Source: a virus
Lineage: Monodnaviria > Loebvirae > Hofneiviricota > Faserviricetes > Tubulavirales > Inoviridae
Reading direction: 5' to 3' (one strand)
Length of the DNA stretch: 7,348 bases
IMG/VR virus record: IMGVR_UViG_2537562221_000013
The position numbers were made by a program, and so were the translations under genes. Below, piece by piece: positions 529 through 6,628 of this stretch (the stretch's first letter is position 1; the number at the start of each line of letters is the position of its first letter). The notes below the pieces were generated by a model that did not search any database, had not been told where the DNA came from, and saw only the letters and a list, made by a program, of their open reading frames with translations.

Positions 529-556
529 ATTTAACATAATATACATTATGCGCACC
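529..556 (-). other. dif: dif-type XerC/XerD site-specific recombination site (chromosome dimer resolution site), exact 28-bp match to E. coli dif, reverse orientation
   Basis: The + strand reads ATTTAACATAATATACATTATGCGCACC, the reverse complement of the canonical dif GGTGCGCATAATGTATATTATGTTAAAT. The XerD arm faces the IS2 side and the XerC arm faces the prophage. Confidence 0.85.
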
Positions 557-588
557 AATGGTAAGGATGGCAGAATCTGGCGGGAATC

Positions 589-607
589 GTTGACACTGGC
601 CGTCAAC
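589..607. repeat. Palindrome GTTGAC-N7-GTCAAC, 33 bp to the right of dif; candidate protein-binding site
   Basis: 6-bp arms at 589-594 and 602-607 are exact reverse complements. Function unknown. Confidence 0.4.
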
Positions 608-687
608 TGGCTACTATCGACAGTGATTCAAAATCATCCGTTTCTCCAAACGAATCAGAATCAAATGTCTGTCAGCAGTAAGTGAAC

Positions 688-710
688 GGCCTGACCTCAC
701 CAATCAGGCC
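688..710 (-). terminator. Possible weak intrinsic terminator: GC-rich 7-bp stem (GGCCTGA / TCAGGCC) straddling the stop codon of the 697..906 ORF
   Basis: Inverted repeat 688-694 / 704-710 with a 9-nt loop. On the minus strand it is followed by GUUCACUUACU, only a modest U content. Confidence 0.3.
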
Positions 711-906
711 TGTTCATCCAGTTAGTTGGTAAATCTGTACCTGATACACGAGAATCAAACACCACTTCTTCAGTGCCATCACCATGATGCCGGATAATCT
801 GGTAACCGGATTGCGGGTTCTGGCTCTCAGCTTCATAAGCAGCCCGGAATGCTGGATCTTTGAGAAGCATCACTTTCAGCTCCTGATGTGTCATGAATTT
901 TTCCAT
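697..906 (-). CDS. Hypothetical small protein (69 aa from the ATG at 906; the same frame is open back to an ATG at 945, giving 82 aa). The N-terminal motif resembles the N-terminus of some Xre-type antitoxins but there is no HTH domain.
   Basis: ORF-track 697..945. The ATG at 906 has a weak GGGG Shine-Dalgarno 6 nt upstream; the ATG at 945 has none. The N-terminus HQELKVMLLKDPAFRAAYEAE recalls the DPEVRAEYEAL-type motif from memory, not from a search. I checked the alternative frames and none restores an HTH. Confidence 0.45.
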   Translation of the reverse strand: MEKFMTHQELKVMLLKDPAFRAAYEAESQNPQSGYQIIRHHGDGTEEVVFDSRVSGTDLPTNWMNRPDW

Positions 907-1067
907 GATAAGCCCCGATGAATGCTGCCGCGCCGAATCAGCCATAACGCTGAAAATGGAAACTGTACGGCTTGGCCAACCCCGGACAGCAACAAAACAA
1001 GTTTTGTCACTGACCGGCGTTATCTTTCAAAACAGACAGTTAACGATTTTTTGTCTGGTGTTTATGC

Positions 1068-1094
1068 GTGAAATTTCGTGCGTACGAAATTCAC
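1068..1094. repeat. Imperfect palindrome/hairpin (GTGAA-A-TTTCG, loop TGCGTA, CGAAA-TTCAC) overlapping the stop codon of the 1091..1339 ORF
   Basis: 10 bp of pairing with a 1-nt bulge. No flanking T tract, so not an obvious terminator. Candidate operator or origin/packaging-type hairpin. Confidence 0.35.
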
Positions 1095-1339
1095 CACCAA
1101 TAAACAAACGGACGATGACTGACCGGAAAAGCAATGCCGTCAGCATCATGACCACGCATTACCTGATTGAGAAGCCTTCTGACTTCACGGCGCTCAGGCC
1201 TGGTCATCATCATATTGCGATACCAGGACGGCGATTTATCAAACCATCTGGCACAACTGGCAAAATGTGAACCTACACGACGATAAGACTTAAGGCGGCC
1301 ACCGGGAAGTCGGTCACGCGCCTTATTTTTTACAGACAT
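1091..1339 (-). CDS. Hypothetical small basic protein (82 aa), possibly nucleic-acid binding; phage cargo or regulatory gene between pIV and dif
   Basis: Strong RBS: AGAGGA then 6 nt then ATG at 1339. By my count about 18 Lys/Arg against 6 Asp/Glu. It lies directly downstream of pIV on the same strand with no terminator between. The overlapping + strand ORF 893..1270 has no comparable RBS. Confidence 0.5.
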   Translation of the reverse strand: MSVKNKARDRLPGGRLKSYRRVGSHFASCARWFDKSPSWYRNMMMTRPERREVRRLLNQVMRGHDADGIAFPVSHRPFVYWW

Positions 1340-1427
1340 AATAAATCCTCTAAGTAACTGAATACCTAGAAGATGTCGTACTGTTCATACCCCATAAAAG
1401 TTAACGCCATAATAAAAATCCATACAA

Positions 1428-2672
1428 TCAGTTCAGGTTGTCCCGGAACAGTTCACCGCTCCTCGCGGCGCTGCGGGGCGTCGCCCTGCTCCGGTCAACC
1501 TTTCTGACCTGAAGCATCACCATAATATCAGTCTTGTTGCTTTCACTGGTACGGGAACCGAAGAAGCTCCAGCCGGAACTGGCCTTACTGTCTTTCTGTT
1601 CAGCAAGGCCACCAAGTAAAATAATATCACCATCTGCAAGGCTGACTTCGGTTGTTACATCACGCTTGATAAGGGTTGGCGAGTTATTGACGCCGGTTTC
1701 AGTGGTCACAAAGTTGGAAAGCTGCTGCTGAATCTTGAGATCCATTGTCCGACTTTTGATTGATGGCGTTACGTTAAACAAAACACCGCTGGAACGATAT
1801 TCAACGGATTGCGTGGTCGTATTGTTATTCACCGTAACACTGCCCAGTACTGGCACATCAGAGCCGACTGAAAAAGACGCTGAGGCATTATTTTTTACCC
1901 GCAGTCGTGGCGCACTGACAACAGTAAAACGACTGTCGGTTTTAAGCAGATTGAAAATGGCATCAATGGAGCCGGTTCGAATATTGATAAAATTATCCAG
2001 TCCGGCAGCACCAACTGAAATATTGAATTTATCAGACAGAATTTTAGCCGCTAAAAGAATGCCGGAGCCGTCAGACTGCGAGGTCTGAACCTCAAAAACA
2101 TAACCAGAAACAACCACTTCATCACTCATCGTATCCAGCGAAGTGACCAGTGTTTTCAGGATGGCGATATCCTCTTTCGTACCATAATAAACCAGAATAT
2201 CACCGGTTCGATTAATGTAGTTGCTTGCCCCTGATGAACCTTTTAGCGAATCGTCAGAAATCACGGCTCCACTGTTATTGAAGGAGCCTGAAACGTAGCC
2301 GCCAAGAATATCAGACAGGTAGGCAACAGAACGGTACTGAGGCGTATAAGTCCATGTATAACGTGGCTTAACCGGCTCTTTCGGCGTATAGGGCGCGATA
2401 AAATCAACACCCTTTTTCGTCCATATTCGAATGTTCATATTGCCAAGATAACGGGTTACAAATTCCCGTTCATCAATATCAGGTGTTAACCTGAATGTAA
2501 TCATTCGTTCATCATTAACAAGCTGTGGATCTAGCATATACGGGACTTTAAGCACCTCACTATAAATAAGAGAAATAGCCTCCGGTAGCTTGACTTTATT
2601 TAATTCAAGCTCTGACCCTGCGAAAGCACATGAAGAAAATAGTAGCGTTAATGCGAGTAAAATCTTTTTCAT
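1428..2672 (-). CDS. Filamentous-phage pIV-type secretin (outer-membrane export channel for virion extrusion), 414 aa
   Basis: N-terminal signal peptide MKKILLALTLLFSSCAFAGSE. The C-terminal half has secretin-like motifs (VVSAPRLRVKNNASASFSVGSDVPV, ILLGGLAEQKDSK). It is the last gene of the module, directly after pI as in Ff phages, and its start overlaps the pI stop by 1 nt (TAATG). Confidence 0.85.
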   Translation of the reverse strand: MKKILLALTLLFSSCAFAGSELELNKVKLPEAISLIYSEVLKVPYMLDPQLVNDERMITFRLTPDIDEREFVTRYLGNMNIRIWTKKGVDFIAPYTPKEPVKPRYTWTYTPQYRSVAYLSDILGGYVSGSFNNSGAVISDDSLKGSSGASNYINRTGDILVYYGTKEDIAILKTLVTSLDTMSDEVVVSGYVFEVQTSQSDGSGILLAAKILSDKFNISVGAAGLDNFINIRTGSIDAIFNLLKTDSRFTVVSAPRLRVKNNASASFSVGSDVPVLGSVTVNNNTTTQSVEYRSSGVLFNVTPSIKSRTMDLKIQQQLSNFVTTETGVNNSPTLIKRDVTTEVSLADGDIILLGGLAEQKDSKASSGWSFFGSRTSESNKTDIMVMLQVRKVDRSRATPRSAARSGELFRDNLN

Positions 2673-3697
2673 TATTTTTTCCCCGTATAAAGCGTCACAC
2701 GCTCACCATCAATAATTCCGCTCATCAACATCCCTTTGTAATTAAAACTGGATGCAGGAACGGCACGCAAAACACCGGCACCGTTAACAAGAATCACAAA
2801 CGCCCTGCCTTCACTGGTCATTCTCCCTGATATACGCCACTCGGTTGAAAGTGGCGGTTCAGCTGGTTCTGAGGGAGTATCTGGTGCTGGAGTAGCAGCG
2901 GAAGAACGAAACATGGCCGCATCACGTACATCTGTTGTAGCCAAATCTGGCGAGGGATCGCTTCGGCCAAACGTGCTGAAAAATGAGTAAATCAGCCAGC
3001 CTGACCCGATAAACATCAATGGAAAAAGCACAAGAAAGAACCTGACTTTGCCAGAATTCCAGATGCTCTGGCGTTTATCTGTCTGCTTTTCATTACCGTT
3101 ATTTCCTTCATAGCTTTTATAAAGTTCAAAAATATCAGGGTTATATTTATTGCGATAACTGGTGACGAGGTTGCTTTTATAGATTTTGTGGCCTGAATAT
3201 ACGTCAATGCAGTAATGATTATTCAGGCCCAACGCTTTCAGCTTGCGCATCCGGTAAGTTGTTTCTATTTTGTCTTTCAGAAAGCGAGCAATATTAGAAA
3301 GTGACTGATTTACAATAACCAAATCACAGCTAATACCCGTTTCAGGGTGCGTAAAATGACGATGTTCAGCAATAAATGATTTCTTCTCAGCCGTCATATC
3401 CTTATCGCTACCGAAGATTCGCCATGCTTCATCAATAACAATTAAATCACCAAACTGGCAAAAGCTCCCTTCCCCACCTTTAAAAGGAAAGAAATCTGCT
3501 TTAAGCACATCATCATTATCCACAACAATAATTTCTCCCGTTGCATCAGGATAACGTTCGGTGATTTTATCTTTTTGTAAACCATAAATGTTCGTCATAA
3601 CTCTCCGGCCGCTGGTAAATGCAGGAATAATGACATTGCAAACGGCTTCATAACTTTTTCCTGAGCCGGGTATGCCAATATATGCAGAAATAGCCAT
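2672..3697 (-). CDS. Filamentous-phage pI / Zot-family assembly NTPase, 341 aa
   Basis: N-terminal Walker A motif (GIPGSGKSY) and a downstream Walker B-like LIVIDEAW. A single internal hydrophobic segment (FFLVLFPLMFIGSGWLIYSFF) is followed by a Pro/Ser/Thr-rich C-terminal domain. This is the Zot/pI architecture, in the expected position between pVI and pIV. Confidence 0.85.
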   Translation of the reverse strand: MAISAYIGIPGSGKSYEAVCNVIIPAFTSGRRVMTNIYGLQKDKITERYPDATGEIIVVDNDDVLKADFFPFKGGEGSFCQFGDLIVIDEAWRIFGSDKDMTAEKKSFIAEHRHFTHPETGISCDLVIVNQSLSNIARFLKDKIETTYRMRKLKALGLNNHYCIDVYSGHKIYKSNLVTSYRNKYNPDIFELYKSYEGNNGNEKQTDKRQSIWNSGKVRFFLVLFPLMFIGSGWLIYSFFSTFGRSDPSPDLATTDVRDAAMFRSSAATPAPDTPSEPAEPPLSTEWRISGRMTSEGRAFVILVNGAGVLRAVPASSFNYKGMLMSGIIDGERVTLYTGKK

Positions 3698-3700
3698 AAC

Positions 3701-3988
3701 TCACCCTATAACAGGAATACGTCGAATAATAAAACGAGTAGCCATTGCGGAGATAATCATACTAATCCCCTGTGGTAATTTACTCAGGTTAATGAAGTAC
3801 CAGAATCCGTCTGATAAATTGGCAAACAGCGATGAGAGATTGCTTGAATCTGGCAGTAACTCAACAAGGATTTCAACGAAGCCCTGGACTACAAAATACA
3901 GCGCAAAGAATACGACGAATTTAATAATCAATGACCGGAATACAAAACCTAACAAAGTATTTAATGCACTAATCAGAATCCCAAACAT
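3701..3988 (-). CDS. Putative minor coat protein pVI-like, 95 aa, very hydrophobic
   Basis: Multiple hydrophobic segments, with size and position (between pIII and pI) matching gene VI of Ff-type phages. The assignment rests on position and composition, not on sequence identity. Confidence 0.65.
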   Translation of the reverse strand: MFGILISALNTLLGFVFRSLIIKFVVFFALYFVVQGFVEILVELLPDSSNLSSLFANLSDGFWYFINLSKLPQGISMIISAMATRFIIRRIPVIG

Positions 3989-4000
3989 AGTTGCACTCCT

Positions 4001-5713
4001 TTAGGCACTCAGAATAATACGGAGCGCAACAAATCCCCATATAATCAGAAAAATGGTTTCTACGGCGCTTCTGTTCTGCTCAATTAACGGACAATGGGAG
4101 GCAATTCTGTACTGGTGATTAAACACGCTGAATTCAACAACGGGGCAGGATGCTGAACGAGAGCCGATGTTAAATTCGTTTGTAAAAGGCAACAAGTTAA
4201 TAATTGGCGTTAAAATATCTCTTGCCGTTGGCGTTTCTTCAAGCTCAGGCTCTTTTACACCGGGATCTTCTCCCAAATCTATATTGCCATTATTTCCAGT
4301 GTCAGACCCTGAGTTGTTATTAATGGTAATATCAATATTGACGTCAGCCCCTGCACTGTCAGATACAGGTGAAAGCATATCTAATAACGTTGGAGATAGC
4401 CTAAGTTCCGACATCGCAGAAGTTACTTCAGCCGGTGAAACCTCTTTAAACGGTAAGCCGTTATAATCGGCATTAACGGCAGCTTCAGACCACAGCTCGT
4501 TAATCATGTCGGCAAGAAGTGCTGGCGATACACTAACACTATCAAGATACTCCAGATAATCAATCATGGACTCAATATTTCCGGCCTCCAGTACTTCCGT
4601 CATGGCTTTATATTTGGTATTGGTCCAGATAGTAAGCTCACTCTTTTCATCAATATCTTTTGCGGTGTAATCCTCTTTTTCAGGAACGGCGCAAATCGTC
4701 GAATATCCACCATTTGACTGATTAGTCGTTTTACAAGGCGTGTTGTGATACTGATATTGCTTGCCTGCTGTTAAATAAGCAACGCTGTAATACATGGGAA
4801 GCCCTGCTACATTTTCATACATGGGAATACCTGCGGGAAATGAAGATGCGGCCGGGTTGCTATACAAGTGTGTAATCTCAGGTATTTCATAAAATGAGGA
4901 AGGATAAGTAAACTTATAATTCTGTTCAGTAAAGGATACATCTCCATTACTGTTGACAACTTTATTCGTCACAGTGCGTTCAAAATTCGTTAGTGTTTCA
5001 GTATAAGTACGCGAGTTATAGTCATTAAGATAATTTCTGGCAATTTCAGTTGGATTATCACCATAGTAATAAATTAGCTCTTTCGAATCCTGATAATAAT
5101 AAAGCGCATTATCTGGCGTGGAATATCCTGTTTCAACACCTACAACTGGAGAACCCGCATCCACATTATTACGACTAACATGAAGGATTACCGGACTTAA
5201 TTCCTGTGGTTCAAAATTAACGGTTATCGTCTTACTTTCACCACTTTGACCACTGTACGTTACTTCATATAAATTATCGGAAATCTTTTTACCGTTAGTC
5301 ATTACCATTACCGAGCCGTCAGATGAACTCAAAGAAGACGGAACAAAAGATGATACAGCAGCAGCAATACCCGCCCACGTTGCAACACCGCTCATTTTGT
5401 ATGATGAGGCAGCAGGCAAGTATTCGGCAGCATTAGCCGCAGCGCGGCCAACAAAAACACGGGTTGCTGTAAGCTGTGATGCCGTATAAATCGCATCATT
5501 GGCAGCAAAGCGACGAACAAGCACCCGGCCAACGACTTTAGGAATAACAGCCCGCGCAGCCACTGCTGCAATTGCTGGTACAAATGAATATGAATATCGG
5601 GGAAAGGAAACCCAGAGAAAGGAAAAAATAAAGGAATAAACCGTCAGCCTCTTAGCCCAAGAATAACGACATAAGCTGAGACGATCCCCCATAAAAGGGA
5701 ACCCAATTTCCAT
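4001..5713 (-). CDS. Putative adsorption/minor coat protein pIII-like (570 aa as the maximal ORF; an internal signal-peptide-like Met at 5395 would give about 465 aa)
   Basis: Largest gene, sited between pVIII and pVI. It has a Gly/Ser/Asn-rich linker (NNNSGSDTGNNGN), two Cys near the C-terminus and a C-terminal hydrophobic anchor (VETIFLIIWGFVALRIILSA). The ATG at 5713 has a GGAGA RBS 7 nt upstream. The ATG at 5395 (MSGVATWAGIAAAVSSFVPSS) looks signal-peptide-like but has no SD. Confidence 0.7.
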   Translation of the reverse strand: MEIGFPFMGDRLSLCRYSWAKRLTVYSFIFSFLWVSFPRYSYSFVPAIAAVAARAVIPKVVGRVLVRRFAANDAIYTASQLTATRVFVGRAAANAAEYLPAASSYKMSGVATWAGIAAAVSSFVPSSLSSSDGSVMVMTNGKKISDNLYEVTYSGQSGESKTITVNFEPQELSPVILHVSRNNVDAGSPVVGVETGYSTPDNALYYYQDSKELIYYYGDNPTEIARNYLNDYNSRTYTETLTNFERTVTNKVVNSNGDVSFTEQNYKFTYPSSFYEIPEITHLYSNPAASSFPAGIPMYENVAGLPMYYSVAYLTAGKQYQYHNTPCKTTNQSNGGYSTICAVPEKEDYTAKDIDEKSELTIWTNTKYKAMTEVLEAGNIESMIDYLEYLDSVSVSPALLADMINELWSEAAVNADYNGLPFKEVSPAEVTSAMSELRLSPTLLDMLSPVSDSAGADVNIDITINNNSGSDTGNNGNIDLGEDPGVKEPELEETPTARDILTPIINLLPFTNEFNIGSRSASCPVVEFSVFNHQYRIASHCPLIEQNRSAVETIFLIIWGFVALRIILSA

Positions 5714-5736
5714 AATTCAATCTCCATAATAACCTC

Positions 5737-5764
5737 AAGTAAAACGGGCGATATTGTATCGCCC
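5737..5764 (-). terminator. Rho-independent terminator downstream of the major coat protein gene
   Basis: Perfect 8-bp stem GGGCGATA / TATCGCCC (5746-5753 / 5757-5764) with a 3-nt loop. On the minus-strand transcript it is followed by GUUUUACUU. This matches the position of the strong terminator after gene VIII in Ff phages. Confidence 0.6.
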
Positions 5765-5777
5765 ATGAATAATGAAT

Positions 5778-6011
5778 TTATGCGGATTTAACGGTACGCA
5801 ATACCCAGCGAACGCCAGCGACACCGGCATAAAGTGTTACCAGTGAAGCAGCAACGGCCATAATCGCAACCAGAACTGTACTGAAATCAATGCTGTTCGT
5901 CAGCGGCGATAAATCAACACCACTTGATGCCGCTCCTTCTGCAGCGAAAGTCGCGCCAGAAACAGCCATTAATGCAGGTACAGCCAGAAAACTAACGATT
6001 TTTTTAAACAT
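5778..6011 (-). CDS. Major coat protein pVIII-like, 77-aa precursor
   Basis: Signal peptide (MFKKIVSFLAVPALMAVSGATFA), then an acidic N-terminal segment (AEGAASSGVD), a hydrophobic core (VLVAIMAVAASLVTLYAGVAGV) and a basic C-terminus (RWVLRTVKSA). This is the classic inovirus major capsid layout. GGAGA RBS 7 nt upstream. Confidence 0.85.
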   Translation of the reverse strand: MFKKIVSFLAVPALMAVSGATFAAEGAASSGVDLSPLTNSIDFSTVLVAIMAVAASLVTLYAGVAGVRWVLRTVKSA

Positions 6012-6045
6012 AACTCTATCTCCATTACATTTTAAAGGTTCGCAT

Positions 6046-6297
6046 TCAAGCAGTACGAACCATCTTTATTACCTGTCCCACACCTACAGAAAAAAGCCAG
6101 AGCAGCAGGACAGAGTCAAAACCTAATGTCCAGTAATTTCCCATTGCAGAATAATCAATTTGATGAAATGGTTCAGAACGTACCATTATTGCCTGACATT
6201 CTTTTGCATTGTTCGCATTACATAAATAACCTTCAATACGGTAACCATTTTCAGGAATATGATTATCAAACTGAATATCGAAACCTGATGTATCCAT
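6046..6297 (-). CDS. Hypothetical phage protein, 83 aa, with a C-terminal transmembrane segment; in the pVII/pIX (minor coat) position but larger
   Basis: C-terminal hydrophobic stretch SVLLLWLFSVGVGQVIKMV. It follows the upstream gene after a 2-nt gap, with a weak AAGG RBS. Confidence 0.5.
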   Translation of the reverse strand: MDTSGFDIQFDNHIPENGYRIEGYLCNANNAKECQAIMVRSEPFHQIDYSAMGNYWTLGFDSVLLLWLFSVGVGQVIKMVRTA

Positions 6298-6299
6298 AA

Positions 6300-6617
6300 T
6301 CAGCCTTTTATTTCAGTAATGCCGCCATCTGATGAAATGTTATAAGTTACTCCTTCCCTCCCCTCCATTGACCAGACGCGAACATATACAGGTATCTGGA
6401 CTAACTTACCGATAAAATTATTTGCCTGATTCATTACACCGGCATTAACAAGAGCCTGAGATACACGAATAATAATCTGGTCTTGCTTAGTGCCACCAAA
6501 ACCATCAGGAATCTCTAAGCCAACACCAATTTCATTATAGTATCCCTGACCATTGACCTTATTACGCTGGCGAGCACCAAGCATTTTACCTTTTACAAAA
6601 AGACCATAATTAGACAT
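6300..6617 (-). CDS. Hypothetical phage protein, 105 aa; candidate ssDNA-binding protein (gene V position)
   Basis: Strong RBS AAGGAGAG about 5 nt upstream of the ATG. Gly-rich with predicted beta character. The function is inferred from gene order only. Confidence 0.5.
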   Translation of the reverse strand: MSNYGLFVKGKMLGARQRNKVNGQGYYNEIGVGLEIPDGFGGTKQDQIIIRVSQALVNAGVMNQANNFIGKLVQIPVYVRVWSMEGREGVTYNISSDGGITEIKG

Positions 6618-6628
6618 ATCACTCTCCT

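Follow-up and report, generated by a model that had tools for sequence, protein, structure and literature searches.

A CUS-1/YpfΦ filamentous prophage at an exact Escherichia coli dif site and its putative CTXφ-type attachment hairpin

The DNA analyzed here, IMG/VR virus record IMGVR_UViG_2537562221_000013 (7,348 nt, called the window at its full length), carries the genes of a filamentous phage of the Inoviridae beside the chromosomal site dif. A preliminary description, made from the sequence alone, had proposed a candidate prophage integrated by XerC and XerD, recombinases of its host, that is, an integrative mobile element exploiting Xer recombination (IMEX), and had named CUS-1 and YpfΦ among its analogues. 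Our results support this proposal, and the findings reported below on the second dif-like site, on integrase genes, and on the extent of the native flank do not go against it. The window is very probably the dif-proximal 6.4 kb of a CUS-1/YpfΦ prophage, an integrase-less, XerC/XerD-using IMEX of the CTXφ class. Between positions 529 and 6991, it aligns without indels to the elements of E. coli M9682-C1 (99.9% identity) and UTI89 (99.8%) and to both YpfΦ copies of Yersinia pestis NCTC5923 (99.4%). Thus, the model of Xer integration at dif stands, whereas the phages cited as analogues are the element itself.

The occupation of dif by CUS-1/YpfΦ is already known and is not a new finding. CUS-1 at the dif site of an E. 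coli O18:K1:H7 strain was reportedly published by Gonzalez et al. in 2002, and YpfΦ of Y. pestis is said to have been described by Derbise et al. in 2007; UTI89 is presumably also an O18:K1:H7 strain. CUS-1 (from E. coli O18:K1:H7) and YpfΦ are 99% identical, integrate at dif, and form tandem repeats (PMC4266046; also PMC2731167 and PMC7307601). At their 3′ end both restore an intact dif, each has XerC/XerD sites arranged as an inverted pair (PMC4266046, PMC2731167), and both have been assigned to the CTXφ class (PMC4246890 Table 2; PMC3442271).

Over all 7,348 bp, the window is the reverse complement of contig APXU01000208.1 (GCA_000357385.2). It begins, on the plus strand, with a remnant of orfB of the insertion sequence (IS) IS2 (positions 1 to 325; 100% identity to IS2 transposase InsD in phage records), which lies outside the phage. 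At the equivalent position, an incomplete IS2 transposase is annotated in strain 510016, and the remnant matches Pfam rve/HTH_21 in the contig of a sister assembly, AQET01000021.1 (608 kb; locus L006). Positions 326 to 528, which adjoin the XerD arm of dif on the ydeT/yneL side, belong to the native chromosome and are identical to approximately positions 3985 to 4192 of the K-12 locus (L002). At the other end, the left end of IS1 (insA; 6991 to 7348, plus strand; 99.4% identity to IS1 in phage records; Zn_ribbon_InsA) is inserted in phage gene II. Because the ends of the window fall in IS2 remnant and IS1 repeats, they are assembly breaks rather than biological boundaries. Upstream of the equivalent of position 326, K-12 has a different, helix-turn-helix (HTH) pseudogene, which links the IS2 remnant to a deletion on the ydeT side. 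A search for exact matches to the protein encoded by the open reading frame (ORF) of the cut gene II returned 21 contigs, APXU01000208.1 among them. The joint between phage and IS1 in AQET01000021.1 is identical to that of the window; the window's joint was covered by none of the complete E. coli genomes, and an exact-pattern scan of species-representative genomes did not find it.

The prophage body extends from the dif-adjoining end to the IS1 in gene II (557 to 6990), and all of its genes in the window lie on the minus strand in the order gII-gV-(small)-gVIII-gIII(puvA)-gVI-gI-gIV-two small ORFs, with gene II cut by IS1. The 3′ part of gene II, encoding a replication initiator, occupies 6629 to 6990 (PF05155 G2P_X_C, E 4e-35). 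Within it, an ORF at 6629 to 6943 starts at an internal ATG and spans exactly the C-terminal, pX-like G2P_X_C domain. Ff phages make pX from an internal start in gene II; the ORF resembles Ff pX and could still be expressed. It is followed by gene V for a single-stranded DNA (ssDNA)-binding protein (6300 to 6617; PF17426 Putative_G5P, E 1e-52), a small membrane protein in the position of gene VII/IX (6046 to 6297; phrog_3679; “membrane protein” in RefSeq), and gene VIII for the major coat protein (5778 to 6011; phrog_2186 virion structural protein, E 4e-29; weak PF05356 match). The gene III-like product, an adsorption protein of 570 aa (4001 to 5713; phrog_3942, E 8e-252), has a homologous fragment in 510016 that RefSeq calls “PuvA domain protein”; puvA of CUS-1 encodes a virion protein required to bind the receptor (PMC4266046). 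The remaining morphogenesis genes are a gene VI-like minor coat protein of the DUF2523 family (3701 to 3988; PF10734; phrog_974), gene I for a Zot-like assembly ATPase (2672 to 3697; PF05707 Zot; phrog_197, E 6e-93), and gene IV for the pIV secretin (1428 to 2672, with the stop codon at 1428 to 1430; PF00263 Secretin; phrog_1012 “protein IV of M13,” E 8e-138), which is 100% identical to the Y. pestis protein.

Two small ORFs lie between gene IV and dif. The one adjoining dif (697 to 945, with a 65-aa RefSeq form at 697 to 894) is by position the homolog of YPO2281. It matches phrog_6642 (E 1e-53) and has 33 homologs, all named hypothetical, and searches of Pfam and NCBIfam gave no match. The other, at 1091 to 1339, encodes an arginine-rich protein of 82 aa and is by position the homolog of YPO2280a. 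Its 34 homologs (63 to 98% identity; Salmonella, Pantoea, Brenneria, Morganella, Xenorhabdus, and Pectobacterium) were only hypothetical proteins, no function was obtained from Pfam, NCBIfam, or PHROGs, and an AlphaFold2 model built from an 18-sequence alignment was too poor for use (mean confidence score pLDDT, 53). The two ORFs next to attR in CUS-1/YpfΦ have been described as having no predictable function (PMC4266046). Both genes belong to the phage. The stretch of 870 bp between dif and the phage genes, read in the preliminary description as non-core cargo, is phage DNA containing two genes conserved across the phage family.

The description of the window as free of integrase and recombinase genes was correct, its ORFs being the inovirus set, the two small ORFs, the IS2 remnant, and the IS1 end. 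No tyrosine or serine recombinase was found among the ORFs of the window or among the remaining element ORFs of the sister contig, UTI89, and M9682-C1 in Pfam, NCBIfam, PHROG, and RefSeq annotations. An integrase in the adjacent sequence, which would have pointed to another mode of entry, is thus missing from the elements of the window lineage, UTI89, and M9682-C1. M9682-C1 has DNA other than the ydeT region on the XerD side of dif: positions 1206 to 2970 of its locus (L005) contain two genes for site-specific integrases, of which one is truncated, together with IS1, and a different island therefore abuts dif on that side.

The dif site itself is exact. The 28-mer GGTGCGCATAATGTATATTATGTTAAAT of E. 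coli dif occurs once in the window, at 529 to 556 on the minus strand, with 0 mismatches, as had been reported, and 0 of 200 dinucleotide-preserving shuffles contained a match within 3 mismatches. The identical 28-mer lies in the K-12 terminus between ydeT and hipA. In plus-strand coordinates, the XerD arm occupies 529 to 539, the center 540 to 545, and the XerC arm 546 to 556; this arm order confirms that the XerC arm points to the right, toward the prophage. To locate the joint between chromosome and phage, we compared positions 337 to 1430 with 5,426 complete E. coli genomes, 3,998 of which gave a match (at 99% identity or higher in about 3,100 records). Among 30 records sampled across the matches, most alignments, including those of empty sites such as that of K-12, run from 337 to 555-559; a few matches end within or before dif, and one element-carrying genome matches throughout. 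Only 74 genomes extend through the small ORFs to the right of dif. After dif, K-12 continues with AATATAAACCAAGG and the window with AATGGTAAGG. Homology thus gives out no more than 3 nt from the end of dif formed by the XerC arm, which places the joint at that end, and deletion of the element restores the empty site of K-12 exactly. The comparison with strains lacking the element, suggested earlier as a check, accordingly put the end of empty-dif homology at 555-559; in the sampled genomes, the native flank does not run on to a joint elsewhere. The statement that the prophage genes start 870 bp from dif holds for gene IV (spacing of 871 nt, 557 to 1427), but phage DNA itself begins at the crossover inside dif.

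A second dif-like site had been expected beyond IS1, outside the window, and one was found in the sister assembly at 6466 to 6493, in direct orientation and abutting the hipA-side flank known from K-12. In the sister contig, IS1 is followed by the remaining 5′ portion of gene II, a divergent repressor gene of the HTH type, three cargo ORFs, this second site, and the hipA flank. The far site next to hipA in AQET01000021.1 reads AGTGCGTATAATGTACGACTCGTTATGT, and far sites abutting the hipA-side flank are also present in 510016 (L001, 21838 to 21865), UTI89 (L003, 15560 to 15587), and M9682-C1 (L005, 21830 to 21857). In 510016, which shares the IS2/dif flank of the window at 100% identity, the element ends with AGTGCGTATAA-TGTACG-ACTCGTTATGT and is followed directly by the K-12 hipA-side flank. 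In the far site of UTI89 and M9682-C1, GGTGCGCATAATGTACGACTCGTTATGT, phage sequence comes directly after a XerC arm that is exactly the chromosomal one. Tandem copies were found in M9682-C1 (two complete copies, repeating every 9357 bp) and in Y. pestis NCTC5923 (repeating every 8742 bp), with an attP-type 28-mer at the copy-to-copy joint in both. As the far-site 28-mer of M9682-C1 recurs at its copy-to-copy joint, that 28-mer is the phage attP.

This site, attP1, consists of the XerC arm GGTGCGCATAA, an 11-nt spacer TGTACGACTCG, and a XerD-like arm TTATGTTGAAA that agrees with dif at 9 of 11 positions. Its inverted and imperfect partner, attP2, is found at a distance of 35 nt and reads GGTTCGCATAA-TGACG-TTATGCTAAAG. 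A register with a 6-nt center, which gives the far site a XerD arm of TLC-like appearance with 5 of 11 matches to dif, was replaced by the register with the 11-nt spacer, in which 9 of 11 match and the arm also pairs in the hairpin described below. The XerC arm of the far site tracks the host: Yersinia has GGTGCACATAA, and the arms beside other host flanks are AGTGCGCATAA, AGTACGCATAA, or GATGCGCATAA, whereas the dif-side XerC arm is always GGTGCGCATAA, whatever the host. A far arm that varies with the host and a constant dif-side arm place the crossover at the boundary between XerC arm and center, with the XerC arm of the dif in the window presumably donated by the phage. The site at 529 to 556 would then be a chimera of phage and chromosome. 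The alignment of the window with the inner, joint-side copy of the tandem array begins at position 542, and dif and attP share the 15 nt GGTGCGCATAATGTA (542 to 556; XerC arm plus TGTA). Judged from these alignments, the crossover under the Xer model is within 542 to 556, and positions 529 to 541 are certainly chromosomal.

The far end also contains the variable part of the CUS-1/YpfΦ phage, as comparison of the sequenced elements indicates. In the window lineage, its cargo is three ORFs of 159, 91, and 140 aa, and the far-end cargo of UTI89 and M9682-C1 differs from it. The 91-aa product (L006, 7042 to 7317; L001, 21014 to 21289) is a CxxC zinc-binding protein of the ECs_2282 family with a weak, sub-threshold match to the Lar restriction alleviation family (Pfam, E 9e-4).

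We examined the fold of the attP region in the sense of the phage (+) strand, using for the relatives the attP regions taken from tandem joints and circular contigs. The region is predicted to fold into a forked hairpin (folding free energy ΔG, −33.2 kcal/mol; z, −8.47), and five diverged attPs (from YpfΦ, a circular Brenneria contig, two circular IMG/VR contigs, and a further joint) give a like fold with z values of −5.3 to −8.3. In the type represented by locus L030 and, by sequence, by Klebsiella spallanzanii, the arms are the same and an unrelated, longer terminal stem-loop takes the place of the usual one. When nine sequences were aligned, 96.2% of cells were paired, compared with 28 to 48% when the partners were slid. 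Four pairs had changed on both sides, and none of 500 shuffles reached the observed values. This covariation is consistent with a CTX-type attP and lends it modest support. The phage coding (+) strand, which is the minus strand of the window, is continuous with the top strand of dif, as required if the (+) strand is spliced into the strand cleaved by XerC. Separately, IMG/VR contig L033 has two different attP-type hairpins, at 666 and 5612, 4.9 kb apart; diverged phage genes (pIV 56% identical) lie between them and a CUS-1-like body follows, so that by sequence this contig looks like two different IMEXs in tandem.

In the CTXφ class, the folded (+) single strand is the substrate, XerC swaps one pair of strands, and replication completes integration (PMC4246890, PMC3442271). 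By analogy, attP1 and attP2 on the packaged (+) strand (window minus) would pair into a forked hairpin that mimics the dif duplex. XerC would cut after the XerC arm and swap one strand with the top strand of chromosomal dif, the identity of four center nucleotides (TGTA) would stabilize the exchange, and replication would turn the junction into a prophage. Such an exchange would leave what the sequences contain: at the hipA side, a host XerC arm followed by the phage spacer and the hairpin, and at the other side, a phage XerC arm joined to the host center and XerD arm, forming the exact dif at 529 to 556. The rebuilt dif would remain the chromosome-dimer resolution site of the cell. On the same analogy, integration of CUS-1 would depend on XerC/XerD, use ssDNA, and be irreversible.

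Several points weigh against this account. The far site and the hairpin lie outside the window, and for the window's own assembly they are read from the sister assembly. The covariation comes from nine closely related sequences, with most of the compensatory changes contributed by one of them, that from Brenneria. The assignment of CUS-1/YpfΦ to the CTX type is a proposal made from sequence rather than from biochemistry (PMC4266046, PMC3442271), and YpfΦ is reported, when superinfecting, to favor the imperfect copy-to-copy joint, a preference outside the predictions of the classical CTX model (PMC4266046). Finally, under the model the far site should keep the XerC arm of the host unaltered, whereas the arm of the window lineage, AGTGCGTATAA (L006, 6466 to 6476; L001, 21855 to 21865), differs from GGTGCGCATAA by two transitions (A1 and T7). 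The far arm of CUPF09, AGTGCGCATAA (L035, 12042 to 12052), is a single-change intermediate between GGTGCGCATAA and AGTGCGTATAA, which suggests that the changes are later, stepwise point mutations in a disused site.

The main rival to the CTXφ-type account is a route like that of VGJφ, in which the duplex replicative form of CUS-1/YpfΦ would recombine through attP1 alone, catalyzed by XerC, with re-excision by XerCD possible. The XerC arm of attP1 is that of dif and the center is identical only on the XerC side (TGTA), a hallmark of the VGJ type (PMC4246890), and extrachromosomal forms with dynamic copy number have been reported (PMC4266046). As a duplex, however, attP1 would be noncanonical in either register, with an 11-nt spacer and a XerD arm matching at 9 of 11 positions or a 6-nt center and an arm matching at 5 of 11, and CUS-1 and YpfΦ are assigned to the CTX class in reviews (PMC4246890, PMC3442271). 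Moreover, the inverted partner is kept in all relatives, with compensatory changes, and the stem-loop has been swapped in the L030/K. spallanzanii type. We consider the duplex route improbable because it gives no reason for the conservation of the inverted partner.

Two further routes are much less probable. A process of the TLCφ type, in which a phage XafT-like activator drives a XerD-first exchange at a degenerate attP XerD arm and XerC completes it, would fit the 6-nt-center register, where the XerD arm of the far site, with 5 of 11 matches to dif, superficially resembles the attP of TLCφ (PMC4246890). The center, however, differs from dif on the XerD side (CG versus TA), the 11-nt register gives a 9/11 XerD arm that is paired in the hairpin, and searches of the window, of the window-lineage element, and of the UTI89 and M9682-C1 cargo found no DUF3653 (XafT-like) protein; on this evidence, TLCφ-type integration is very unlikely. 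That the phage came to lie beside dif incidentally, through an integrase of its own located elsewhere, transposition, or illegitimate recombination, is scarcely credible. IS1 and IS2 bracket the window and point to past rearrangements, and YpfΦ seemingly does not lie at dif in one assembly (PMC7307601), but the joint falls within the 15 nt common to dif and attP in varied E. coli backgrounds, in Y. pestis, and in several other hosts, removal of the element restores the K-12 empty site exactly, and the element has no recombinase gene. The CTXφ-type exchange thus remains our preferred explanation.

With the prophage of UTI89, which is the same element (CUS-1), the window shares the gene order, including the pIII-like gene labeled PuvA (a label taken from 510016) and the two dif-side ORFs, as well as the insertion site between the ydeT side and hipA. 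The window copy differs from it by the IS1 in gene II, the two substitutions in the far arm, the IS2 remnant on the XerD side, and the ORFs of 159, 91, and 140 aa that replace a 369-aa ORF of UTI89. With YpfΦ it shares an intact dif rebuilt beside the YPO2280a/YPO2281 end and the attP joint and hairpin of the tandem copies. YpfΦ differs in the accessory ORFs of the far (attL) end, as stated for CUS-1 (PMC4266046), in the host XerC arm of the far site (GGTGCACATAA in Yersinia), and in size (8.7 kb, versus approximately 9.4 to 9.6 kb in E. coli).

CTXφ of Vibrio cholerae was reportedly described as a class I IMEX by Val et al. in 2005. Like CTXφ, CUS-1/YpfΦ has a divergent RstR-like HTH gene, accessory genes between the last morphogenesis gene and dif, a crossover on the XerC side, tandem arrays, and a dif rebuilt at the end distal to the repressor/replication module; the two small ORFs occupy the place that ctxAB has in CTXφ (PMC4266046). 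Both lack an integrase and have two inverted dif-like sites with unequal spacers in a (+)-strand forked hairpin (PMC4246890). The two phages have no detectable nucleotide similarity and infect different host families, the spacers of CUS-1/YpfΦ (11 and 5 nt) are unlike those of CTXφ, and CUS-1 encodes its own pIV secretin. Catalysis by XerC only, an ssDNA substrate, and help from endonuclease III have been shown for CTXφ and are proposals for CUS-1/YpfΦ. The UPΦ phages of the Enterobacterales are likewise filamentous, lie at dif in E. coli and its relatives, and carry accessory genes beside dif, but they belong to a different, IKe/I2-2-like lineage (PMC7307601).

Of the 5,426 complete E. coli genomes, 99 include 80% or more of the phage body. 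The far junction, comprising hipA flank, hybrid site, and hairpin, occurs in 201 E. coli genomes, which implies that about half of the dif-side hairpin ends come from degraded copies or from other elements sharing this attP. A megablast search of the whole window against 50,697 phage records matched only IS1 and IS2, with no CUS-1/YpfΦ at approximately 85% identity or more. No Rfam family was found in the window. A scan of positions 330 to 1500 gave 5 promoter-like sequences (1.6 expected) and 1 terminator-like sequence (1.2 expected), none of them tied to a function.

The copy in the window is most likely an inert, immobile remnant. IS1 entered gene II by simple insertion, as seen in the sister contig: a 9-bp stretch of the target, ATTGAGACG, is duplicated, and the N-terminal 259 aa lie beyond IS1; the intact gene of UTI89 is 1053 nt. 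Compared with UTI89, the other genes of the window are free of indels. The sister assembly contains the prophage as a single copy rather than a tandem array. CTX-class prophages need tandem copies and an active initiator for phage production, and the split gene II together with the single copy therefore makes inertness likely. A second IS1 of the sister assembly (L006, 5614 to 6381), accompanied by a 9-bp duplication, GTAAGTGAG, separates hipA from the far attachment site; with two copies of IS1 so placed, the far part of the prophage could undergo deletion or inversion. In 510016 and CUPF09, differing IS1-associated deletions lie within the phage.

A further comparison concerned the chromosomal sequence beside dif. 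We aligned XerC-side flanks of 30 to 45 nt (window, 557 to 600; L002, 4221 to 4265; L013, 3330 to 3374). Over a 30-nt stretch beyond the XerC arm, the flanks of K-12, UTI89, and Y. pestis agree with the CUS-1/YpfΦ end at 15 to 17 positions (empirical P, 0.0004 to 0.004), and host XerC-side flanks and diverged phage ends have in common a loose ATGAC...GATTCYNCC pattern. The XerD-side flanks have no similarity to the phage ends, although the contrast with the XerC side is weak. CUPF09 carries a second, unrelated element of approximately 3.4 kb at dif, downstream of its CUS-1 remnant (L035, 18479 to 21952), which encodes hypothetical proteins only. This element has the site GGTGCGCATAA-TGTGTTGAACATGTTAAAT on its left and an exact dif on its right, and its final 44 nt are approximately 87% identical to the hipA-side dif flank of E. 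coli.

These results identify the window exactly, as a defective CUS-1 copy with IS1 in gene II, and add explicit sequence-level support, including modest covariation, for a CTX-type hairpin attP in enterobacterial phages. As a discovery they carry little weight, CUS-1/YpfΦ having already been classed with CTXφ among the Xer-exploiting phages; the prevalence figures and the evidence for a chimeric dif are useful outcomes, and only the dif flanks offer mildly new leads. Each insertion of the CTX type would swap the XerC arm of the active dif and set phage-end DNA beside it, and decay of the prophage would leave that phage end behind as apparent chromosome. The “native” XerC half of dif and its flank of approximately 45 nt in E. 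coli and Yersinia may therefore be fossil IMEX ends, a tentative and rather doubtful idea to which the resemblances described above, that of the CUPF09 element included, weakly point.

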